Virus record (IMG/VR): IMGVR_UViG_3300027804_003127
From: a virus
DNA: 64,000 nucleotides
Direction: 5' to 3' (one strand)
Numbering within the stretch: the stretch's first letter is position 1; the number at the start of each line of letters is the position of its first letter. The translations under genes were made by a program, and so were the position numbers. The notes under the pieces are model-generated. The model was not told the origin of the DNA and made no database searches. It saw nothing but the letters and a program-made list of their open reading frames with translations. Of the stretch, positions 2,501 to 62,832 are shown one piece after another.

Positions 2501-3517
2501 ATGTCAAAAAATATACCCTCTTTAATTAATTGGTCAAATCTTAAGAATATAGTTAACCGAAATGGTTTGATAAAAGTAGCCGCCAAAGAAGATTTAGTAA
2601 TGGATGAATCTGGTAATATGAAGCAAGTTACAGACCGTGAGGGCAAAGAGTTTAATCCAAGAAAAGGCCTAGAAGGTCCATACCTAAATAAAGACAGGAA
2701 AGCTTATTATTATGACAACAAAGAAGGCAAGTATTATTGCCCCTATATGGACATGCATCTAGATGCGCCTCCTGAAAGAGAAAAAGCTGCTAGTGTAAAA
2801 GATCTTAACGCATTTAAATTTGCTTGTAAAATAAATGGCCACTCTTTTGATGGAATAATTCTAGAAAAAACAGCCAAACAAGCTATATCAGAATTTTCCA
2901 AAATGATTAAAAATGCTGGAATAGACTATAGTGCGATGGAGTATGATGTCAAACCTTTTAAATTGAATATTTTAGAAGTTTTAAAGACAGCATACAGGGC
3001 AGATATGCCAAAGATGAGCTTACAGGATGTAGCTGACAGATTGATAGAGGCAACTATGACTGGAAAAATGGAAACGATGCCAGTTGATGAATCTAATAAG
3101 ATTTCTCAGTTAATATCTCAATTGAATATTTTAGTAGACACCATGTCTAAGGTGGTTGGAGAGCCCCTGGATGAAGAAGAGGTAATAGAGGCGCTGAACA
3201 ATGCAGCTAAAAACAGAGGAGCTGAAGTTGAAATAGGTTCTTTAGGTTCTGGGCCAGAAGAGGCTTATTTAAACTTTGATAAGTCTAAATTGATAGATAA
3301 TCCAAAAAAAGCACAATCAGATGATATAACAAAAGAGGCAAAGAAGAAAAGTAAAAATCAAGCTCTGGAAGAAAACCCGACTAAGCCAAGTCTTTGGTCT
3401 AGGGCAAAATCAATGGCCAAGAAAAAGTTTGACGTGTATCCATCAGCATACGCAAATTTGTGGGCTAGCAAATGGTATAAGCAACATGGGGGCGGCTGGA
3501 GAAAATCTAGTAAATAA
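2501..3517 (+). CDS. Multi-module phage protein (putative internal head protein)
   Basis: Small modules GLEGPY..YYYDNKEGKYY and KFDVYPSAYAN..WYK..GGGW separated by several K-x-A sites; AGGAG RBS. Confidence 0.7.
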   Translation: MSKNIPSLINWSNLKNIVNRNGLIKVAAKEDLVMDESGNMKQVTDREGKEFNPRKGLEGPYLNKDRKAYYYDNKEGKYYCPYMDMHLDAPPEREKAASVKDLNAFKFACKINGHSFDGIILEKTAKQAISEFSKMIKNAGIDYSAMEYDVKPFKLNILEVLKTAYRADMPKMSLQDVADRLIEATMTGKMETMPVDESNKISQLISQLNILVDTMSKVVGEPLDEEEVIEALNNAAKNRGAEVEIGSLGSGPEEAYLNFDKSKLIDNPKKAQSDDITKEAKKKSKNQALEENPTKPSLWSRAKSMAKKKFDVYPSAYANLWASKWYKQHGGGWRKSSK

Positions 3518-3523
3518 AATACT

Positions 3524-4306
3524 ATGAATAATATTTTCTGCATTGAAGACATATTAAAATATGCACAATCAAGTGATTTTGTTAGCAATTTTAATAACAC
3601 ACTAGATTATCTCAATGCTAAAAATAGAGCAGTATTTGTGACCACCTCTAATCGGTTTCAAATAAAAGGCAAGCAAGAAGATATTCCAAAGTCTACTCAA
3701 ATAGCTCACGCTCTTTCTAAAAGAATGAAAGCAGAGCCAGTTATTATACATGCAGACTCTCTAAACATTGCCATGTGTGAAGGAAATATATCTCGAATGG
3801 ATGGAAATAGCTGTGGAGTAAAAGATAGTTTATTAAAAGATAAAGAAAAGAATCCAAGCGGCAATCATAGATGTTGGGCATCTATAAACGTAAAGGATGA
3901 TGAGCTATGGAAGATAACAAAACCACTCTTTGATAGTGATTGTATATTGTTTTTTGGCTCTATCAGATGGGGTCAGGCAAATGGTTTGTATCAAAAAATT
4001 ATTGAAAGACTCAGCTGGATAGAAAATATAAATGTAACATTAAAAGAGAAAAATATAGTAAAAGGCATAGATGCTGGATTTATATGCACTGGACACAACT
4101 GGAGAGGCTCTGATGTTGTAAAGATACAGAAAGAGGTTTTATCATATTTTGGATTCAATACGCCTGAGAGTTTATTTTGGAATTGGCAATGGACAAAAAA
4201 TTCTGAAGACGAAGACCTACAGGGCTACAAAAAAGATGCCGCAGATTTTAAAAAATTAATTAAATTAACAGTCAAAGGAAAAAACATAGATGAAAGGCAA
4301 GAGTAA
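3524..4306 (+). CDS. Flavodoxin-like / NAD(P)H-dependent FMN reductase-like protein
   Basis: VTTSNR..PKST..A, Cys motifs (CEGN, CG, RCW), DDEL..I...L..SDCILF.GSIRWG; N-terminal KYAQ. Confidence 0.7.
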   Translation: MNNIFCIEDILKYAQSSDFVSNFNNTLDYLNAKNRAVFVTTSNRFQIKGKQEDIPKSTQIAHALSKRMKAEPVIIHADSLNIAMCEGNISRMDGNSCGVKDSLLKDKEKNPSGNHRCWASINVKDDELWKITKPLFDSDCILFFGSIRWGQANGLYQKIIERLSWIENINVTLKEKNIVKGIDAGFICTGHNWRGSDVVKIQKEVLSYFGFNTPESLFWNWQWTKNSEDEDLQGYKKDAADFKKLIKLTVKGKNIDERQE

Positions 4307-4532
4307 TAAAAATAGACGTGGAAGGCAGGCTGAAAAATATATCTATATAGCAGCTTTAGACGAAAATGGTATTGTTAATAAATTGTTGTTAACAGAGAGA
4401 GAATTTGATTCAGCTAAGAAAAGAGCAAAGAATAACCCAGAAGACACATTTGGGGACGTTATTGCCTTTCAAGTGATTAATGATATAGTAAAAGAAAAGA
4501 TATGTGAAATTAAGCCATCTAATCTTGATTAG
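4290..4532 (+). CDS. Hypothetical protein
   Basis: Overlaps the upstream stop; AAGGA RBS. Confidence 0.6.
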   Translation: MKGKSNKNRRGRQAEKYIYIAALDENGIVNKLLLTEREFDSAKKRAKNNPEDTFGDVIAFQVINDIVKEKICEIKPSNLD

Positions 4533-22742: not shown

Positions 22743-23552
22743 ATGAAAAAAACTAAGAAACACAAAATAAAACAGGATATAAAATTGTGGCAAGACTTAG
22801 ATGCTATTAGGAATAGCACTAATGATTTTAAAAATAATGATAATTACAAAACAGTAAGGGCTAAGCTAGCAGAGCTCAATTACCCTATAGTTTTAAAGCT
22901 TGCAGATCTTATGCATCATAAGTATCCAGAAACAGACAAAGACGATCTTCAGGGATTCGGAGCTCTAGGCCTTCTTGATGCAATTGATAAATTTGATCCT
23001 TATAAAAATATTCAATTTGAGACTTTCGCTACGTATCGGATCTTTGGATCAATGTATGATGAAATGAGAAAATTAGACTGGGTCCCAAGATTGACAAGAC
23101 AACGGTATTCTAAGATGGAAAAAATAAGAGAAAAATTTACCATTATTAATGGTAGAAGTCCTACTCGTGAAGAATTAATACAAATGGCTCCTGGAGATTC
23201 TGAATTAGAAAAAGAAAAGATAGTTGATGATAGTGTAGTTAAATTTTCTTATTCTATAAACAAGTCTAGTAACTCTGATGATGAAGAAGATTTTTCATCA
23301 ATACATTGTGATAAAAAGAATAATTTTTTTGAAGAACTAGATAGAATAGATCTGTTTAAAAACTATATAGTTTCTAATTTGGAAGATGTAGAGTCTAAGT
23401 TTATTTATCTGGTTTACTACGAGGGAAGATCGCTAAAGGAAGCTGCTAAAATCCTTGGAATCAAAGAAAGTAGAAGTTCTTCTATGCATGACTCTGTTCT
23501 TAAGAAGCTTGAGCCAATATTTAAGGAAGACAAAAATATCCTCATGAGGTAA
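22743..23552 (+). CDS. RNA polymerase sigma factor, FliA/WhiG (sigma-28) family
   Basis: DDLQGFG.LGLLDAIDKFDP...FETFATYRI.G.M.DE.R.LDWVPR; region 3 GRSPT.EEL; region 4 YYEG.SLKE.A.ILG..ESR. Confidence 0.9.
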   Translation: MKKTKKHKIKQDIKLWQDLDAIRNSTNDFKNNDNYKTVRAKLAELNYPIVLKLADLMHHKYPETDKDDLQGFGALGLLDAIDKFDPYKNIQFETFATYRIFGSMYDEMRKLDWVPRLTRQRYSKMEKIREKFTIINGRSPTREELIQMAPGDSELEKEKIVDDSVVKFSYSINKSSNSDDEEDFSSIHCDKKNNFFEELDRIDLFKNYIVSNLEDVESKFIYLVYYEGRSLKEAAKILGIKESRSSSMHDSVLKKLEPIFKEDKNILMR

Positions 23553-32646: not shown

Positions 32647-32664
32647 TACTTAGTTAATTAAATT

Positions 32665-32695
32665 AAAAAAGGCAAGATTATATCTTGCCTTTTTT
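32665..32695. terminator. Bidirectional intrinsic terminator
   Basis: AAAAAAGGCAAGAT-tat-ATCTTGCCTTTTTT between convergent genes. Confidence 0.88.
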
Positions 32696-32715
32696 ATTTG
32701 ATTTTTATTACCTTA

Positions 32716-36527: not shown

Positions 36528-37193
36528 TTATGGGGACTTGCGGGGTGTGTAATCTGCCATTATGCTTACTGTTATATCGTAAAAATGCTTTCTCCACTCT
36601 GCAGAAGTAACATATTTATATTTTAAATTTCCATTTTCTTTCATTTTATGTATAAAATCATTGACATCTAAACCTTCTTCGTATGCTTTCATGATTTCAG
36701 AAGTTACTGGTGGAGCATTAATTCCTTTTGGAGTATCCTTTCGTACAACAAGAACTTTGTCATTTTCAGGCCTTTGTGTTACATCAACATCAACTATTCT
36801 TATAGTTTGTAGCGGAAATGCTTCAATATCTTCAATATCAAACACTACTTTAAGACACGCTTTTCTAAATTTATCATTTATTAATGATTCTATAGATTTA
36901 CTTAAGTTTTGCCTCCAACTTTCAAAAGCTATTACTTCTTCATGAGTTGGATCATTGGTATTACCTAAATAATCTATTATAGATTTACAATGATTTAATC
37001 CGTCTGCGTCAAAGCAAAATTGAGTATTCCATGGCTTTGAGCACACCATTTTGCCTTCTTTTAAATGAAAATCAACATTTACTTGATTCCTAGGGAATTT
37101 AGTATCTGACATAGTGATGTATATTTCATTAGCAACTAATTTAGTTAAATCTTCCGACAAAAAAGTTTGAACATTATTATTTAATACAGACAT
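36528..37193 (-). CDS. Hypothetical protein
   Basis: Start revised to ATG 37193 (GAGGT RBS). Confidence 0.7.
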   Translation of the reverse strand: MSVLNNNVQTFLSEDLTKLVANEIYITMSDTKFPRNQVNVDFHLKEGKMVCSKPWNTQFCFDADGLNHCKSIIDYLGNTNDPTHEEVIAFESWRQNLSKSIESLINDKFRKACLKVVFDIEDIEAFPLQTIRIVDVDVTQRPENDKVLVVRKDTPKGINAPPVTSEIMKAYEEGLDVNDFIHKMKENGNLKYKYVTSAEWRKHFYDITVSIMADYTPRKSP

Positions 37194-38073
37194 GTTATAC
37201 CTCAAAGAGATTAATTTCGAAAACTTCTGTGGCTATAAGGAAATAAATTTATCGTTTATGAACGAAAGAAATTTTATTCCCTTGTCTGTCTTTTTCGGTC
37301 CAAACGGCACTGGTAAAAGTACTATACTAAGTGGAATAAGAATAATATCTAATCCATATCAATTTTACGGAAGAGAAAATGATTTATATTTTAGAAAAAT
37401 GATATTTCATGAAGATTATGATCCAACTTATTCTGGTTTTATTGCTAGTAGTAGAAAATTAAGTTTAAAAGGTGTCTTTTTTGACAACACAGGGAAAGAG
37501 TATTTTTCTCATATTGATCAAAATGGTATTGTTGAAACAACACTTCCTAGATACAACTCAGATCAAGAAGGTTGGTCTATTTTTACCGATGCAGATCATC
37601 CAATTAATTTAAATAAGTTTCAACTTAAATGGGAAGCAGCTGATAAATTCCTAGAAATTGCTTCGTATGTATATGGACTACCTATAGAGTTAGGAAAAAC
37701 TGTAGAGACACATGATCTTAATGATACCGCTAAATTTTATCAAGATCTAATTATACATAAAAAAGAAGTAAAAGTACATTTCAAAAGAATGAGTGATGGA
37801 GAAAAGAAAATAGCAACATTGCTAAGAACAATTTGTAATGAATCTGTTATGAACCCAAGTAAAATATGTCTTATAGATAATGCTGAAATGCATATATATT
37901 TCAAGAGACATCCAGGGCTTGTTAAAAGACTTATTAATAATTTTCCTGACACACAATTTATTACGACTTCACATAGCTATAATTTTATTCAAGCGGTCAA
38001 AGAAAGCTCAGGAGACAATTCTTTGTTTGACTTAGAGAAGTTTCATGGGTTTGATATAGTAAGGTATGAATAA
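37192..38073 (+). CDS. ABC/SMC-superfamily ATPase (AAA_15/AAA_21, OLD-ATPase-like) without coiled coil or nuclease domain
   Basis: LKEINFENF, FGPNGTGKST, MSDGEKK signature, CLIDNAEMH Walker B, FITTSHS. Confidence 0.85.
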   Translation: MLYLKEINFENFCGYKEINLSFMNERNFIPLSVFFGPNGTGKSTILSGIRIISNPYQFYGRENDLYFRKMIFHEDYDPTYSGFIASSRKLSLKGVFFDNTGKEYFSHIDQNGIVETTLPRYNSDQEGWSIFTDADHPINLNKFQLKWEAADKFLEIASYVYGLPIELGKTVETHDLNDTAKFYQDLIIHKKEVKVHFKRMSDGEKKIATLLRTICNESVMNPSKICLIDNAEMHIYFKRHPGLVKRLINNFPDTQFITTSHSYNFIQAVKESSGDNSLFDLEKFHGFDIVRYE

Positions 38074-38600
38074 CCACTGAACCCGAAGGGTTCTGTGCCG
38101 AGACGCGAAGCGTCGAGGGGTAATTAAAGAGAATGTCGTCATCTTCGATGACTCCATGAGTCGATCTCATTCCTGCGTCATGAGATCGAGGCTCTACAAA
38201 ATCCGTTTCTGTTTAGTATCACTTGTAAGTGATACTATTGTCCCCAGTCAATCGCCACTCTATAATACATTCTAAGAATTTTTCATATAGAGGACACACT
38301 CCCATCTTTCTTAGAAAGCCGTTTCTGTTAATAAATTAAAATTATATAAAAGACCAATTATACAAACGTATGTATCAGAGGAATTATGCAGATTCCTTGG
38401 TTTCTGTCCAGTAGTCGAACCTATTTGGGTTTTAGCCTGACGATTCTTCCGCCGCGTCTGGAGACACGCTACCAGGATAGTTGGGACGTTATCCTCTGGC
38501 CGATTTTATCCTGTGCCACAATGTAATTCAAATATGTTATCTCAAACTGCAAACTCGAGATTAACGTTTCTCGGCAAAAAAAGAAGTAAAATTTTGCATA
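38074..38600. other. Non-coding structured region (hairpin array; candidate origin or large ncRNA)
   Basis: Five perfect inverted repeats in 38079-38237; CCGTTTCTGTT direct repeat at 38203 and 38319; AT-rich core; no credible ORF. Confidence 0.6.
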
Positions 38601-38619
38601 AGATGGTAATAAAAATGTT

Positions 38620-38805
38620 ATGAGTTTATCTTTATATCCTAATGTGATTAATAAAAATATATTTGTTTCAGACACAGCGCCTTCTTACGCTGTTTCTGGA
38701 GATAATTGGTTTAATACATTAAATGGTGTCTTATTAGTGTTTATAAGAGATGATAATGGTAATGGCTACTGGATTGAAACTGGATCTTCAGTTAAAACGG
38801 GATAA
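38620..38805 (+). CDS. Small virion fibre-associated protein (single GDxW module)
   Basis: VSDTAPS....GDNWFNT.NG.L.VF..D.NG..YWIE. Confidence 0.65.
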   Translation: MSLSLYPNVINKNIFVSDTAPSYAVSGDNWFNTLNGVLLVFIRDDNGNGYWIETGSSVKTG

Positions 38806-38807
38806 AA

Positions 38808-39095
38808 ATGTTTAATTTTCCAGATCCAAATTCTCAAAATACTTTTTCATTAGGTGAAAAAACATGGAAATGGAATGGTTCATATTGGGAGATCGTAAAA
38901 CAAATCGTTGTTAGCGATGGTATAAAATATTATCAACAAGACGATGCTCCTTCTGGAGTGAACTTAGGAGATAGATGGCTTAATACTCAAAATCTTACAG
39001 AATATGTATATGTCCAACTTCAGTCAGATCCTGATGAGTTTGGATGGATGGATTTAACTGGCGATTATCCAGGAGAGGCTTTTTTAGGAGGATAA
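38808..39095 (+). CDS. Small virion fibre-associated protein (FPxxP..WxWNG module + GDxW module)
   Basis: FNFPDP...KTWKWNGSYW; GDRWLNT..L.EYVY. Confidence 0.7.
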   Translation: MFNFPDPNSQNTFSLGEKTWKWNGSYWEIVKQIVVSDGIKYYQQDDAPSGVNLGDRWLNTQNLTEYVYVQLQSDPDEFGWMDLTGDYPGEAFLGG

Positions 39096-41309
39096 ATGGC
39101 AACCGCATTAAAATCTACAGGTTTTCCGCGCAGTCCTTCCAATGGGGATGAGTACAGCGTTAATGGTAAAAAATGGAGATACAATGTAAATATTCCAGGC
39201 TGGGAAGCCCTACAAATAACAGATGTAAAGTCTATAAAAAAAGACACAACTAATAACCAAGTTTTATTTGGAAATGAAAACTCATTAGGCAGCACTTCTT
39301 TCACTATTGGTGACAACATAGAACTTAATGCTATAACTAAGACCATATCTGTAGTTGATGGAATTAGCAGTGGATTAGATGCTGATTTAGTTCAAGGCAT
39401 AAATGGATCTTATTTAAATAACAATCTGAGATCAGGTGTTTTGTATGGCGGAGTATTGTCTGTTAATGTTTCAGATCCTTCTAAATTTGACATCAGTGCA
39501 GGTTCTGGTGTAATAATCAGTCAGACTGGTGGTGGAGCTTCTGGTATATCAGATCCTGTTACTGGGTCTTTGGTTGTTTCTTGGTCGTCTCAATCATCAA
39601 TAAGTTTATCTAATATATCTTCTGCGGATACAACATGGATCTATGTTAATTCAAATGGAGTAATAGGTCAGCAGACTGGAGTTTTTAGCTCAGAAAACTA
39701 CAAAGAATATATTGTTATAGGCGCTGTTGTTCATCCTAATAGGTCTACAATATCTTTTACTTCTAATTTATCAAATGTTGTTTTTGGGTCATTACATCAG
39801 TATGATGAATTTATAAGAAGCTTAGGTCCTGCTAAAATATCTGGACATAGAATTTCTGCTAATGGCTCAAATATGAAGTTGAATCGCAGCTCAGGTTATT
39901 CGTATTTAATAGGATCTAATTATGTTTTAGATTCTGGTCATCCAAATATAAAATTTGATTCTGGCTATTCAGATCCATCTATACATAGATATTATTCTGA
40001 TGGTTCTTCTGGATTCAATATAAATATATCTTCATCAGTTGATGGTTCTAAATATGACAATGGATCAGGTACTTTGCAAAATGTATCTTCTTATGAATGG
40101 TCAATACAAAGAATGTTTTATTATCCAGGTCAAACTGGAATATTGATAATATATTACGGTAATTCAGTATATGCTTCATTGTCAGATGCCATTTCTTCAC
40201 TGGTAGAAGAAAACTTTAATGAATCCACAAATACAAAATCAAATGCGATATTTTGTGGATGGATAATAGTAAAAGGTTCTGCAACTCAATTAAACAATTC
40301 TTCTGATGCAAAAATAATACAAGCAAGTATATTTAGAGAAGTAGTTTCTGGAGTCGGTTCAGGCGGTAGCTCAATATCGTTTATATCTGAATTGTCGGAT
40401 GTGGAAACTTCGTCGCCATCAGTTGGTCAACTTTTAGTTTGGGACGGTTCAAACTGGACAAATCAAACACTTACAGGAAAGATATCCTACGTATCATCAC
40501 CTTCGGCTCCTAATGTTGCTTTGTATAATGCTGGTGACAGATGGTACAATACATCAACAGGCATAGAATATACGCTTATAAATGATGGAGATGATCTATA
40601 TTGGGTAAATATATACATAAGTCCAAATGAAGATTATATAATGAGTGAATTGACGACTTTTATGAAATACGTCAGTTCGCCTACAGCTCCAAGCGTTAGT
40701 CTATATAAAACTGGTGACAAATGGCTTAATACTTCTACAGGAACAGAATTTACTCTTATTGATGATGGTTCTGGTACTCAATGGGTTAATCTAAATACTA
40801 ATTTTATATCTCACATACATCCTATTTCTGAGATAACAGGTTTACAGGGCGAATTGGATTCTAAAATAGAGTTTTCTTATGACCCATATTCTCCTGTTTC
40901 TCCAAATTTAGGTGACAGATGGATAGACTCAGATACTGGAGAAGAATATGTATATGTTTATGATGGAATATCGTATCATTGGATTCAGCCATCTTCAAGT
41001 ACTTTTTATGGTGCAATAACTTTTAACACAACAATTGTAAATTCATCTTCTTATTATTCTACTAGTACTGATTATTACATTGGAGTTAATTATTCTGGAC
41101 TTGTTACAATTATTCTTCCTCAAAATCCATCTAATGGAAGAATAATAATAGTAAAAGACGAAAGTGGTGAAGCAGGTTTTTCAAGTAGAATGATTACAAT
41201 ACAACCTTATGATGTTTTAGATACTATTGACAACGATTCATCAGCAATAATAAATATCAATAATGGCGGTATTCAGTTCATATACAGAAATGGTTGGAGA
41301 ATAGTATGA
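39096..41309 (+). CDS. Tail fibre/branching scaffold protein
   Basis: N-terminal FPRSP..GKKWRYN; SGLDADL; LSDV....P..GQLLVWDG..W; three GD[RK]W modules; HIHPISEITGLQ; C-terminal DYYIGVN..KDESG domain. Confidence 0.8.
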   Translation: MATALKSTGFPRSPSNGDEYSVNGKKWRYNVNIPGWEALQITDVKSIKKDTTNNQVLFGNENSLGSTSFTIGDNIELNAITKTISVVDGISSGLDADLVQGINGSYLNNNLRSGVLYGGVLSVNVSDPSKFDISAGSGVIISQTGGGASGISDPVTGSLVVSWSSQSSISLSNISSADTTWIYVNSNGVIGQQTGVFSSENYKEYIVIGAVVHPNRSTISFTSNLSNVVFGSLHQYDEFIRSLGPAKISGHRISANGSNMKLNRSSGYSYLIGSNYVLDSGHPNIKFDSGYSDPSIHRYYSDGSSGFNINISSSVDGSKYDNGSGTLQNVSSYEWSIQRMFYYPGQTGILIIYYGNSVYASLSDAISSLVEENFNESTNTKSNAIFCGWIIVKGSATQLNNSSDAKIIQASIFREVVSGVGSGGSSISFISELSDVETSSPSVGQLLVWDGSNWTNQTLTGKISYVSSPSAPNVALYNAGDRWYNTSTGIEYTLINDGDDLYWVNIYISPNEDYIMSELTTFMKYVSSPTAPSVSLYKTGDKWLNTSTGTEFTLIDDGSGTQWVNLNTNFISHIHPISEITGLQGELDSKIEFSYDPYSPVSPNLGDRWIDSDTGEEYVYVYDGISYHWIQPSSSTFYGAITFNTTIVNSSSYYSTSTDYYIGVNYSGLVTIILPQNPSNGRIIIVKDESGEAGFSSRMITIQPYDVLDTIDNDSSAIININNGGIQFIYRNGWRIV

Positions 41310-42526
41310 GTTATTTGTTTAATGATCAAGTCGCTTTTAGAGGTGATGCCATAGATGCATTCGGTAGGCTTAAAGTAAGTCAGCCATTTACTCTTTTTGA
41401 TTCTCAACACAGGTATCAAGAAAATGACAAATGGGATACTTCAACATCCTCAGGGGGTTCAACTTCATACGCAACAAATGAAAGTTGCATAAACGTATCT
41501 GTTACTACAGCTTCTGGATCTAAGGTAACTAGAGAAACAAAAAGGGTATTTCCATATCAGCCAGGCAAATCATTATTAATTTTTAATACTTTTGTATTTG
41601 CTCCTAAGAAGACAAATTTAAGACAACGTATTGGATATTTTGGCACTCAAAATGGCATATATTTAGAGCAAAGTGATAATACGGTATACCTTGTTTTGCG
41701 CACATATACAGGTGGATCTGTTGATGACACTACGTATAGAGTTGCCCAGTCTTCTTGGAATGGAGATAGGTTTGATGGTACGGGTTCTAGTGGAGTCACA
41801 TTAGATTTTACGAAGGCTAATATTTTTTGGATAGATATTGAATGGCTTGGTGTTGGTGATGTCAGGGTTGGTTTTGCTGTTAATGGAAGACCTGTGGTTG
41901 CACATACGTTTTATAATGCAAATCTAAGAACTACCACATATATGACTACCGCATCTTTGCCACTAAGATTTGAGATAGAAAATACAGGTACAACGGATTC
42001 CGTTTCATCTGCAAAGCATATATGTAGTAGCGTAATGTCAGAAGCTGGCTACGAAGGGTTTAGTAGAAGATTTAATGTTACAAAAAATGGATCAACTGCA
42101 ACTACCTTAACTACAGGTGGGACTCAGTATCCAATGGTTTCTGTTAGACTTAATTCTAGTCGTCTTGATTCTATAATAATACCATCTAATATAAGTTGCG
42201 TTCTTGAAGAAACCACTAGTAATAAGCCTGATACTGTTTTATATAGAATATTACTTAATCCCACATTAACCAATGCAAGCTGGTCAACTCACTACAATGG
42301 AAACGTTGATTATGACATAAGTGCAACAGCTGTTTCTGGTGGTACTGACATAATAGGTGGATATATAAGCAGTAGCGGAAGTCTTTCAGTTTCTAATATA
42401 AATGACTTTAATTTCCAGATTGGTAGAACACAGGCTGGTGTAAGTGATGTTTTTACTCTTACTTTTACACCAGTGAATGCAGGAGCAAAAGTATTTTGTG
42501 ATTTATCCTGGTTTGAAATAGTATAA
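41306..42526 (+). CDS. Conserved beta-rich virion structural protein
   Basis: DAFGRLKVSQPFTLFDS, RETKRVFPYQPGK, EWLGVG.VR.GF; start revised to the ATGA overlap. Confidence 0.75.
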   Translation: MSYLFNDQVAFRGDAIDAFGRLKVSQPFTLFDSQHRYQENDKWDTSTSSGGSTSYATNESCINVSVTTASGSKVTRETKRVFPYQPGKSLLIFNTFVFAPKKTNLRQRIGYFGTQNGIYLEQSDNTVYLVLRTYTGGSVDDTTYRVAQSSWNGDRFDGTGSSGVTLDFTKANIFWIDIEWLGVGDVRVGFAVNGRPVVAHTFYNANLRTTTYMTTASLPLRFEIENTGTTDSVSSAKHICSSVMSEAGYEGFSRRFNVTKNGSTATTLTTGGTQYPMVSVRLNSSRLDSIIIPSNISCVLEETTSNKPDTVLYRILLNPTLTNASWSTHYNGNVDYDISATAVSGGTDIIGGYISSSGSLSVSNINDFNFQIGRTQAGVSDVFTLTFTPVNAGAKVFCDLSWFEIV

Positions 42527-59405: not shown

Positions 59406-59789
59406 GTGGAATATTTATATCATATTTTAATACCTAAAAATTTTGCAGAAAAAGTGAATGATTGCTTTAAAAACATTAGCAATTGTATAGATTCTCCATT
59501 TAAGTATAAAATATCAACTAGAATAAATGGAGATCACAGTTATACTGGTGCGTATGGTCTTTCTGAGGATGACATAAAAATATTTAGAGTTATGTTTGAG
59601 CTTAATGAAGATGGGATTTATTGGTGGAAAGTAGATAAAAATACGGGCATATTAGATGAGTGTAATGACGCTGACTGTTTATGCTATGTAGGTGACAAGT
59701 ATTCTATGAAGTTTTTATTAAGAAGGTCTGGTTTCTATTTAATCGGAGAAAATGATGGCGAAAGCTGGTCGTCCAAAAAAACCGAATGA
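59406..59789 (+). CDS. Hypothetical protein
   Basis: 127-aa ORF directly upstream of terL. Confidence 0.55.
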   Translation: MEYLYHILIPKNFAEKVNDCFKNISNCIDSPFKYKISTRINGDHSYTGAYGLSEDDIKIFRVMFELNEDGIYWWKVDKNTGILDECNDADCLCYVGDKYSMKFLLRRSGFYLIGENDGESWSSKKTE

Positions 59790-62700
59790 TTTACATTTTG
59801 ATTTAGAAAATTTAAAACAAGCTGTTAAAAATGTCACGCTTACCGCTAGTGACGCTGGTCATGTTCCAAGTATAATTGAATTTGTTGAATCAGAAAAATA
59901 TTTGGGTCTTCCTCATCAAAAGCCCACTTCTATAGATCTTTATCCATTTCAGCGTATTATGTTGAAATGCTTTTACTCTGGAAGTGTGGGAAATGAACAT
60001 ATGACACTAACAGATGAAGAAAGGCAACTGTGCAAAAAATACAACCTTTTAGATGAAGACATTAGCGATATATTTTCTAAAATAGATAATGGAGTTATAA
60101 AAAGTGAGATGGTTCTTGTATGGGGTCGTCGTTGCTTGTCAGAAGATAATAATATAGTAGACATTAATACAAATAGAATTTATACATTTGGTTCAATGTG
60201 GGATTCTGGAAAGAGAACAATAGACTCATGGACTTATAATGAAAAAAGTAAGAGAATGGAATGTGTGTCTAATTGCGATATTGTATATCAGGGAATAAGA
60301 GATGTATATAAAGTGCAAACTTATAGTGGTCATTTTATAGAGGCTACATCAAATCATCCTGTACTGACATCAAATGGGTGGAAGCAGATTAAAGATCTGG
60401 ACACTGATAATGATATGATATCAATTAGCGAGTCTTTTCCATTTGGTTTAGAAGTAAAAACCGAAATGACGGAAGAACAAGCAAGACTTATAGGATATAT
60501 GATAGGTGATGGAAACTGTTCAAAAGCTGCAACATTTTTGACTTGTTCAAATAAGTCCGTATTGAAGGATTTCAAAGTATGTTTGAGCTCACTGGGCGAT
60601 AACATAAAAATTTTCAAAGATCCATGGACTGGAGCAAAAAGCAAAAAATATCAATATAAAATAACTTCTAAGTATTATGAAAACGAGTCTTTAGGAGTAA
60701 AAGATTATAGAAACAGAACTTTAACTCGTAGAAAAAAGAATTTACTCATGCAGCTTTTGGTGCAGTATGGTATAAGCGGTAAAACATGTCATCATAAAAG
60801 AACTCCAAAAGAAATACTCGAAGCACCTAAAAATGTCGTCTCTAATTATTTGAAGGCTTTATTTAGCTGTGATGGGTCTATTTATATTAAAAAGAGAAAA
60901 AAATATGTCAATCATTGTCAAATAGAATTTTGCACCGTAAATAAACAACAGGCTTATGATGTTCAGTATTTACTAAGTAAATTTGGGATATTATCAAACC
61001 TAAGGTCAAAATCTGGAAAAACTTCCATAGTGGATGAAAAGCATAATAAAAGAACTTATCGCTCAAATTCTTATGTTGTGTCTTTTGTTCGTAAGAAGTA
61101 TATAAGTATATTTTTACAAGAAATAGGGTTTATTGGTAAAGATAAAATAGTTAAATTATGTGAGTCTACGTTAAGTAAGATAATTGATAAAGATTCAAAC
61201 CATGATAGCTCATTACCGTACTCATGTTTTAATATAAAATCTATAGAGCATATTGGTAAAAAAAGAACATTTGATTTGCAAGTGAGTGATCAAAAGCATT
61301 TGCAAAATTTTGTAAGTCAGGGATTCATATGTCACAATAGCGGCAAAGATTTCATTGTTTCAATATTAGCATGCTACGAAGCTGCGAAGCTTCTTGAATC
61401 TCCAAATGGAGATCCCTACAAGTTATATAACTTAGGATCTGGAGCCCCATTTACTATATTGACAGTGGCGAATAGCTCTGCTCAGGCTCAAGTTTTATTT
61501 AATGAAATAAAAGATAAAATAATAAAAAGTACATATTTTGCTGACAAGATAGTCGCAGATGGCATACTTGCAGATCAAATACATCTTTTAACTCCTGCTG
61601 ATAAAATAAAGAATGCAGAATTAGCTTCTAGGGGTCTTCCTACCAGTCCTGGGTCTGTTATAATAAGATGTGGACACAGCAACTCGGACTCTCTTGCAGG
61701 TATATCTTGTTATTGCCTTTTATTAGACGAAATTGGATTGTACAAACAAACTGCTGGCAGCAGTGGAGGAGAAAGTATATACAGAACTCTTGCTCCAGCG
61801 ACTTCCACTTATGTAAGAAAAGAAAAATACATAGATCCTTATGGAGAAGAAAAAAATAAAGATGTATATGATGGTAAGATAATCTGCATTAGTTCTCCTC
61901 GTGGCAAAGAAGGTGTGTTTTATGAATTGTATAGAAAGGCATCTTCTGTTTCTCATAGGGTTATGTGTAAGTTGCCAACATGGGTCGTTAACCCTAATCA
62001 GACACAAGAATTGTTGCGCCAAAAGTTCAGTAACATGACTGAAGAAGAATTTATGATGGAGTTTGGTGCAGAATTTAGTGGAACTGCTGGTCAAACTTTC
62101 TTTACTAGAGACATGGTAGAAAAGTCATTTGTTAATAATTGCAGATTCAAGGAGCATGGTGAGCCAGGATTTAGCTATTTTTGTCATTTGGATCCAGCAA
62201 CTTCTTCGCACAACTACGCTTTATGTGTTCTTCATAAAGAATCATATCTTAATAAAGATACTAACAAAATGGATTTTAAAATTATAGTAGATCATGTGAA
62301 GTATTGGCAGCCACTAGAGGGTAGGCCTATACTAAACGAAGAAGTTGACAATTATATAATCATGTTAAGCAGAAGATTTAACTTTGAGCTAGTTACATTT
62401 GATCAATGGAATTCTCAACATAGTATAGATCATTTGCAAAAGCATAGTATACCTGCAAAAATGACTAGATTTACAAAAAGATACAAAATAATTATATATG
62501 ATAATCTTTACGATTTAGTATCGGCCAATAGAATGCAAATTCCAGCTCACGCTTTATTGCATGATGAAATGTTGTATCTACAAAGAAGATATACAGCAAC
62601 AGGATATAAGGTTTTTGCTAAAAAAGACGGATTAGTTAAAACTGATGACGTTGTAGATGCTCTTGCTGGAGCATCCTATGCGTGTTTAAATGAAGGTAGT

Positions 62701-62832
62701 ACTAGGCTTCCACAAGGAAGATTAGCTAGAATGTCGGTAACTCCATTTGGAGATGGAGTTGTTTTTAGAGGCATGCAGGGACAGCCTTTAAATGATTTTA
62801 TGGATAGATCAAAATGGACAAAGAGGTTCTAA
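59752..62832 (+). CDS. terL: Terminase large subunit (intein-containing)
   Basis: LYPFQ, Walker A WGRR|SGKD split by the intein, LLDEI Walker B, ISSP, PTW..NP, EFGAEF, HLDPA, TFDQWNS, DDVVDALAG. Confidence 0.92.
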   Translation: MMAKAGRPKKPNDLHFDLENLKQAVKNVTLTASDAGHVPSIIEFVESEKYLGLPHQKPTSIDLYPFQRIMLKCFYSGSVGNEHMTLTDEERQLCKKYNLLDEDISDIFSKIDNGVIKSEMVLVWGRRCLSEDNNIVDINTNRIYTFGSMWDSGKRTIDSWTYNEKSKRMECVSNCDIVYQGIRDVYKVQTYSGHFIEATSNHPVLTSNGWKQIKDLDTDNDMISISESFPFGLEVKTEMTEEQARLIGYMIGDGNCSKAATFLTCSNKSVLKDFKVCLSSLGDNIKIFKDPWTGAKSKKYQYKITSKYYENESLGVKDYRNRTLTRRKKNLLMQLLVQYGISGKTCHHKRTPKEILEAPKNVVSNYLKALFSCDGSIYIKKRKKYVNHCQIEFCTVNKQQAYDVQYLLSKFGILSNLRSKSGKTSIVDEKHNKRTYRSNSYVVSFVRKKYISIFLQEIGFIGKDKIVKLCESTLSKIIDKDSNHDSSLPYSCFNIKSIEHIGKKRTFDLQVSDQKHLQNFVSQGFICHNSGKDFIVSILACYEAAKLLESPNGDPYKLYNLGSGAPFTILTVANSSAQAQVLFNEIKDKIIKSTYFADKIVADGILADQIHLLTPADKIKNAELASRGLPTSPGSVIIRCGHSNSDSLAGISCYCLLLDEIGLYKQTAGSSGGESIYRTLAPATSTYVRKEKYIDPYGEEKNKDVYDGKIICISSPRGKEGVFYELYRKASSVSHRVMCKLPTWVVNPNQTQELLRQKFSNMTEEEFMMEFGAEFSGTAGQTFFTRDMVEKSFVNNCRFKEHGEPGFSYFCHLDPATSSHNYALCVLHKESYLNKDTNKMDFKIIVDHVKYWQPLEGRPILNEEVDNYIIMLSRRFNFELVTFDQWNSQHSIDHLQKHSIPAKMTRFTKRYKIIIYDNLYDLVSANRMQIPAHALLHDEMLYLQRRYTATGYKVFAKKDGLVKTDDVVDALAGASYACLNEGSTRLPQGRLARMSVTPFGDGVVFRGMQGQPLNDFMDRSKWTKRF
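60133..61338 (+). mobile_element. Intein with LAGLIDADG homing endonuclease (402 aa)
   Basis: N-terminal CLSED, ATSNHPVLT block B, LIGYMIGDG and LKALFSCDG, TFDLQV..NF..GFICHN followed by Ser(+1). Confidence 0.93.

Follow-up and report, generated by a model that had tools for sequence, protein, structure and literature searches.

Does the array of small hairpins behind an ATPase gene in the virus record IMGVR_UViG_3300027804_003127 act as duplex DNA, or does it belong to a strand that folds upon itself? The stretch analysed here (the window, 64,000 nucleotides (nt)) has a gap of 546 bases at positions 38074-38619, with the ATPase gene on its left and tail-fibre genes on its right. A preliminary description, made from the letters alone, had interpreted the hairpins as a DNA-level element, i.e., a replication origin, a packaging site or a hairpin promoter of the phage N4 type, possibly with a structured RNA in the right half. 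Comparison with relatives suggests that the hairpins make up one end of a longer conserved element, a single unit of ~500 nt (up to roughly 600-750 nt in relatives), which would act as a folded single strand, most likely as a stable non-coding RNA. Judged from the pattern of sequence change, the element probably represents a previously undescribed family of large structured non-coding RNAs with a conserved pseudoknot core.

Conservation and distribution of the gap

Searches with the virion protein and the ATPase, with DNA patterns and by exact-protein look-up yielded copies of the gap in IMG/VR, JGI, ENA and Logan contigs. The whole gap was found to be conserved in ~12 related metagenomic phage contigs, with syntenic copies in L115, L100, L123, L081/L103, L004, L005, L084, L117-L120, L104 and L003. 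Nucleotide identity of the gap to the window was 63-95% vs. 46-63% at the third codon positions of the adjacent ATPase gene, and this comparison shows the gap to be conserved above the neutral level. The small open reading frames (ORFs) within it (38386-38526 on the plus strand and 38469-38675 on the minus strand) are broken by a 2-nt indel in relatives; the alignments show an element without coding potential and with no conserved ORF. As had been described, the gap is the largest stretch of the window without an ORF of at least 90 amino acids (aa).

A gap of 340-900 nt follows every ATPase homologue of at least 47% identity, and after the homologues of 47-57% identity it is kept even with other right-hand neighbours or with neighbours on the opposite strand (L127). 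As a whole, the gaps of these more distant homologues cannot be aligned, yet GCCACT, a stem X, an interleaved stem Y and a GG(A/T)CA..C..CCAT loop are present in each. Outside the close family, this pseudoknot core was found in L127, L121/L125/L132, L130/L142 and L138/L140, and it is present in five sequence families. A descriptor of the core matched only gaps after ATPase homologues, with 0 others in 2.84 Mb of fetched loci, and a covariance model built from the close family (R1) found L127 at an expectation value (E) of 7e-5 and 0 of 16 control loci. Pattern matches in L092, L094 and L096-L098 were rejected as chance, some lying plainly in coding DNA. A core-like match in L031-L035 was also rejected; it falls within a 255-aa ORF.

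ATPase homologues of 28-43% identity are followed by neither gap nor core. In L147-L152, whose contigs reach 499 kilobases (kb) and whose ATPase homologues show 35-43% identity, ORFs come directly after the ATPase gene and the RNA core is absent; the pairing of ATPase and RNA is therefore confined to one clade. In the marine loci L117-L120 (GROS21 samples), a minus-strand Methyltransf_24 gene stands between the ATPase gene and the element (insertion at 3413-4051), and an AT-rich insert of ~170 nt (4160-4330) lies between hairpin 2 and stem P3.

Covarying helices and the pseudoknot core

The features of the locus are listed below, with the strand where one is assigned.

38074-38575, minus strand favoured: whole conserved structured element, a candidate large non-coding RNA, delimited by conservation in relatives
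38075-38097: hairpin 1, outer CAC/GTG plus GAACCC-GAA-GGGTTC; compensatory changes in 3 of 6 pairs (C-G, G-C, A-T, T-A)
38098-38118: hairpin 2, outer CC/GG plus GACGC-GAA-GCGTC; six stem versions, all pairing
38130-38160: stem P3 around the variable apical hairpin 3 (38138-38152); the outer stem covaries
38161-38189: hairpin 4, stem of 10 base pairs (bp); 8 of 10 pairs changed on both sides, 98.8% of cells paired
38203-38213: repeat motif, copy 1, CCGTTTCTGTT; kept in relatives
38214-38237: hairpin 5; a hairpin of unrelated sequence at the same place in most relatives, doubtful in L103 and L104
38252-38316: pseudoknot core of TCGCCACT, stems X and Y and the invariant loop GGACACACTCCCATCT; in all five families
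38258-64 with 38286-92: stem X, CTCTATA with TATAGAG; five versions across families
38270-78 with 38308-16: stem Y, TTCTAAGAA with TTCTTAGAA; nine sequences across families
38292-38307: invariant loop GGACACACTCCCATCT; conserved
38319-38329: repeat motif, copy 2, CCGTTTCTGTT; exact copy
38330-38358: AT-rich linker; length and sequence vary among relatives
38360-38375: hairpin 6, loop with ACGG (in most relatives AACGG); five or six versions of the stem, with Watson-Crick pairs only
38379-38397: hairpin 7, loop ending in CAG in most relatives; covarying stem (AGGAAT, AACCAT, AAGTT, AAGCT, AAACA)
38404-38513, minus strand: right-hand domain of CTGTCCA, extended helix, hairpin Db, CGCTACCA and long-range helix Da; covariation
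38414-38449, minus strand: extended helix with a 3-bp apical hairpin, within the right-hand domain
38453-38468, minus strand: hairpin Db, within the right-hand domain
38473-79 with 38507-13, minus strand: long-range helix Da, 7 bp; three wholly different versions
38539-38561: hairpin E, followed by a conserved T(A/C)TCGG motif; stem different in every lineage, closes the element
37192-38073, plus strand: PtuA-like ABC/SMC-type ATPase gene, 293 aa; left-hand neighbour of the element

Covariation in relatives, which the preliminary description had named as a way to examine the locus, was assessed block by block against shuffles and slid controls. Over all blocks, 93-99% of cells were paired, a level that 0 of 500 shuffles matched and that compares with 25-62% in the slid controls. 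In the left block (38074-38202; hairpins 1, 2, P3 and 4), pairing reached 98.7% of cells, with changes on both sides in 18 of the 29 pairs (0 of 500 shuffles; slid controls 30-41%). The pseudoknot (alignment A10) reached 97.1% (0 of 500; 35-62%). For the right-hand domain, 26 pairs with 93.4% pairing were obtained on the plus strand and 32 pairs with 96.9% on the minus strand, where the three main helices reached 97-100%. At least 13 helices, long-range and interleaved stems among them, are thereby shown, at the level of the aligned relatives, to have been retained through compensatory changes.

Stems X and Y interleave, forming an H-type pseudoknot. The promoter-like TATAAT box is the 5' arm of stem X and no promoter element; it covaries from C-G to T-A, with four sequences on either side, and is replaced by unrelated sequence in other families. 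At the invariant centre of the element would stand TCGCCACT with stems X and Y and the loop GGACACACTCCCAT, bordered on either side by a copy of CCGTTTCTGT; variable peripheral hairpins would be arranged around this centre, 1-5 on one side and 6 and 7 on the other, with 38404-38513 as a second conserved domain. The two CCGTTTCTGT copies lie one on each side of the pseudoknot, 109-117 nt apart in relatives and fixed relative to the helices, and the AT-rich stretch is the least conserved part of the element.

Covarying long-range and interleaved helices are not explained by protein-binding sites in duplex DNA or by cruciforms, for which reason the functional form is taken to be a single strand. 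We infer this strand to be RNA rather than single-stranded DNA. The proposal of a structured RNA in the right half is supported by the alignments, and this support extends to the whole gap.

The hairpins described earlier were all recovered as written (38079-93, 38102-14, 38138-52, 38161-89 and 38214-37), as were the alternative stem (38150-62), the exact CCGTTTCTGTT repeat at 38203 and 38319 with a partial copy near 38399, and the AT-rich stretch. C-GAA-G triloops are indeed present in three hairpins; the loop is conserved only in hairpin 1, where GAA is kept in 10 of 11 sequences, and hairpin 3 itself survives only as a variable apex. In hairpin 2 the loop varies (GAA, AAA, GTA, TTTA), and L104 has an expanded branched stem at this position. 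Stem P3 occurs as CTCATG/CATGAG, TTCATG/CATGAA or AATG/CATT; the first of these, found in relatives, is degenerate in the window. The P3 apex differs in length and sequence (GCTTTC-TTC-GAAAGC in L123), with TTC on the plus strand in most relatives, carried by very different stems.

A scan of the whole window revealed 116 triloop hairpins with a stem of at least 5 bp, of which only 3 have a C-GAA-G or C-TTC-G loop, all at 38079-38152. On the two strands of the 64 kb taken together, 65 copies of CGAAG were counted, giving an expectation of ~0.07 for the 75-base span of the hairpins; three within 64 nt are far from chance. The unusual stability of C-GAA-G and C-TTC-G triloops is known for DNA, not for RNA.

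The loops of hairpin 6 (38365-38369; AACGG in most relatives) and hairpin 7 (38388-38391; ACAG or GCAG) are complementary to the halves CCGTT and CTGT of the repeat motif, with partner sites at 38203-38212, 38319-38328 and 38404-38407. In L123, a change of CTGT to CTAT is accompanied by a change of the loop to TTAG. These loops and the repeat motif are considered candidates for a tertiary or intermolecular contact.

The folded strand and competing explanations

To determine the folded strand, helices were fixed by Watson-Crick criteria only and the type of the exceptions was then counted. In the close family, A.C on the plus strand (equal to G.U on the minus strand) was found in 14 pair columns vs. 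G.U on the plus strand in 5; curated internal exceptions ran ~9:1 in the minus-strand direction, and both intermediates between C-G and T-A in stem X (L117, L125) are C.A. Pairwise comparisons gave 48 vs. 16 toward the minus strand, with the same direction in all 4 families tested; the two-sequence consensus of L121/L125, which is Watson-Crick only, carried no strand information. Furthermore, the minus-strand fold was the more stable one in 9 of 11 elements, and the plus strand had more C than G in 9 of 11, a bias that is reversed in the flanking genes. Given an RNA, these exceptions and biases make it likely that the minus strand is the one that folds, antisense to both neighbouring genes.

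Several observations weigh against a minus-strand RNA family of this breadth. The wobble counts are small and partly non-independent, hairpin 1 of L103 contains one G.U on the plus strand, and the possible pairing of the hairpin 7 loop with CTGT would likewise involve a G.U on the plus strand. Inspection of the aligned relatives by eye revealed no convincing promoter or terminator on the minus strand. On the plus strand, a run of T5-7 follows hairpin E in L121, L117 and L123, not in the window, and L117 carries a late-promoter-like TATAAAT (TATAAATCGG, ~45 nt upstream of hairpin 1); together, these would suit transcription of the plus strand. Model R1 did not reach the three GC-rich families, which are joined to the window only by the core architecture as read by eye and by the descriptor.

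Some of these points belong to a different explanation, according to which the element is a cis-acting RNA of the plus strand, i.e., a long structured 3' untranslated region belonging to the ATPase mRNA, or else a plus-strand RNA of its own, that ends at hairpin E and controls how stable the mRNA is or whether transcription continues into the late tail-fibre operon. Hairpin E with its T run in the three relatives looks like an intrinsic terminator, the orientation of the element relative to the ATPase gene is the same in all families, and hairpin 1 begins 5 nt past the ATPase stop codon. Neither hairpin 1 nor hairpin 2 is followed by a T run on the plus strand (hairpin 1 gives a weak terminator-like match on the minus strand), and in the absence of such a U-tract, transcription of the ATPase gene probably runs into the element. 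The type of mismatch, the folding energy and the G/C skew, however, favour the minus strand; in L117-L120, the methyltransferase gene, on the minus strand, lies between the ATPase gene and the element, and in L127 the right-hand genes lie on the minus strand, so that the element cannot be their leader there. On balance, we regard a plus-strand cis-acting RNA as unlikely.

The DNA-level interpretation of the preliminary description, with the CCGTTTCTGT repeats as iterons and the AT-rich part as an unwinding region of an origin, or else with a packaging site or extruded N4-type hairpin promoters, was natural from the sequence alone but is misleading here, and we consider it very improbable. Direct repeats do flank an AT-rich stretch, gene orientation switches at this site, and C-GAA-G/C-TTC-G loops recur on either strand in several families; this recurrence is the best argument that remains for a role at the DNA level. 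Against it, Da, P3, X, Y and the pseudoknot covary, and a pairing that includes long-range helices and a pseudoknot is impossible for duplex DNA or a cruciform. The non-Watson-Crick pairs differ by strand. Only two full repeats exist, each fixed relative to the helices and separated by the pseudoknot, and the linker that would unwind is variable, which is not the make-up of an iteron-type origin; no initiator gene was identified among the scanned neighbours. An array of N4-type promoters is likewise not what was found, since there is a single cluster in 64 kb, located downstream of a gene, and the GAA loop is not kept in hairpins 2 and 3. No such hairpin and no further exact copy of CCGTTTCTGTT occurs elsewhere in the window, neither CCGTTTCTGTT nor TTCCGATATA is enriched in it as a shared promoter motif, and the other points at which genes switch strand are without a comparable element.

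That the gap, placed between an early or middle-type gene and the structural module, is a loose collection of terminators, promoters and protein-binding sites between two transcription units, in which no molecule folds as a whole, can practically be dismissed: a promoter-like match (38238-38266) and a terminator-like match on the minus strand (hairpin 1), one of each, stand against interleaved and long-range pairings that need one molecule, and a sigma-70 scan yielded 9 promoter-like sites vs. 11.1 expected from shuffles, the best match, TATAAT, being a covarying stem arm. An ORF of the window (22743-23552) matches the phage RNA polymerase sigma factor family phrog_351 (7e-19), and the promoters of the phage may be invisible to a sigma-70 consensus scan. 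The perfect palindromes at 473-513 and 32664-32696, with stems of 19 bp and 15 bp and with A runs and T runs on opposite flanks, look like the ordinary bidirectional terminators of the phage, from which the hairpins of the element differ.

Relation to known systems and genomic setting

A covariance-model search against Rfam 15 (including GOLLD, ROOL, OLE, HEARO, raiA, group I/II introns, tmRNA, RNase P and 6S), which the preliminary description had also suggested, revealed nothing at E <= 1 on either strand of 37000-39500, no match at gathering score was obtained in the window, and the elements of five relatives gave none at all. A sub-threshold match to sbrA lies outside the element. The region is conserved without a match to a known non-coding RNA or a mobile-element end; neither of the two observations that the preliminary description had named as refuting was made. 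No tRNA or tmRNA was found, deposited phage genomes showed no similarity (megablast and blastn; tblastn of the ATPase), and no description of the element was found in the literature.

The closest comparison is with the large "ornate" RNAs GOLLD and ROOL, which are longer than 500 nt and of unknown function, are in many cases carried by phages or prophages, and have been studied by cryo-electron microscopy (PMC12286853). Like these, the element is non-coding, longer than 500 nt, rich in covarying helices and pseudoknotted, and it was found by comparative metagenome analysis; unlike them, it has no neighbouring tRNA genes, and it matches neither in sequence nor in structure. Large structured RNAs of unknown function are rare, several are found in phages, and each new class has so far had an unexpected architecture. 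For an element known from metagenomes only, the support here is unusually strong, with at least 13 covarying helices and with a pseudoknot that spans five diverged families. Under the doubtful ribonucleoprotein proposal given below, the CCGTTTCTGT motif and its complementary loops might moreover let the RNA assemble into multimers, as ROOL and GOLLD do.

The only constant partner of the element is the PtuA-like ATPase gene. The encoded protein matches Pfam AAA_21, AAA_15 and SMC_N, gives a PADLOC match to PtuA (2e-19) and has PDB matches to the ATPases of retrons Ec83/Ec78, to PtuA and to AriA. In three reports (PMC12475279, PMC13376987, PMC12673091), the PtuA ATPase of type I-A retrons is described as physically holding a structured nucleic acid. 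The likeness lies in an SMC-type PtuA-like ATPase gene beside the gene for a structured nucleic acid. The ATPase found here is, however, short (293 aa vs. 450-550), and the element, which resides in a phage and not in a defence island, far exceeds an msr-msd RNA in size. No reverse transcriptase was detected, either as a PF00078 match in the contigs of three relatives (29-60 kb) or among the scanned neighbours, and no HNH or other nuclease partner was seen among the scanned neighbours.

By analogy with PtuA ATPases holding retron msDNA, the element could tentatively be a trans-acting structural or protein-binding RNA with the adjacent SMC-type ATPase as candidate partner. The narrower proposal, that it is the RNA partner of a truncated PtuA-like ATPase and that the two form a ribonucleoprotein carried as a unit by a jumbo-phage lineage, is doubtful. 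If it held, such a ribonucleoprotein could mimic, or act as decoy for, the PtuA complexes that carry nucleic acid in Septu and type I-A retron defence; alternatively, it could be an RNA-scaffolded machine in virion assembly. The fixed PtuA-family neighbour in any case offers a concrete, testable starting hypothesis for the role of the RNA.

Another phage-encoded structured RNA that works with an ATPase is the pRNA of phi29, of ~170 nt, which uses loop-loop complementarity and belongs to small podophages with protein-primed genomes. The complementarity of the hairpin 6 and 7 loops (AACGG in most relatives; ACAG or GCAG) to parts of CCGTTTCTGT may be a comparable trait. In contrast to phi29, the terminase gene of this phage lies 21 kb from the element, and the loop-motif pairing is putative, with a single suggestive co-change, in L123. 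The virion-RNA-polymerase hairpin promoters of N4 and the d(GCGAAGC) mini-hairpins have short G+C-rich stems with 3-nt purine loops. The element shares these stems and loops; it differs in that its hairpins are parts of a larger covarying fold, lie downstream of a gene, have no copies elsewhere and, in the case of hairpins 2 and 3, lack a conserved loop.

The window was found to consist of phage DNA, with genes for a helicase, ribonucleotide reductase, thymidylate synthase, a sigma-factor-like protein, tail fibres, virion proteins and a terminase. Proteins from T4-like cyanophages share 43% identity with the virion protein encoded at 41294-42526. The 200.7-kb contig L099 (JACCDW010715211.1) is almost identical to the window DNA, ATPase homologues are present on contigs of up to 370 kb, and CheckV estimated a completeness of 15% for a 60-kb relative; these findings together point to a jumbo phage, an uncultured aquatic one. 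In L099 (209-4434), the ATPase protein is identical to that of the window and the element differs at only 2 positions, and the genes 1-3 kb to the left of the locus show only 91-94% protein identity. This comparison suggests recent recombination near the locus of ATPase and element.

The tail-fibre module to the right opens with two small ORFs on the plus strand from 38620 onwards. As the preliminary description had stated for the downstream genes, all ORFs of at least 90 aa that are not overlapped by a longer one lie on the plus strand from 38808 to the end of the window. With regard to a giant virion RNA polymerase of the N4 type, the longest ORF in the window does not exceed 1305 aa. In the 1026-aa ORF at 59752-62832, the N-terminal half has no assignment, and homology to the terminase large subunit is limited to residues ~480-980.
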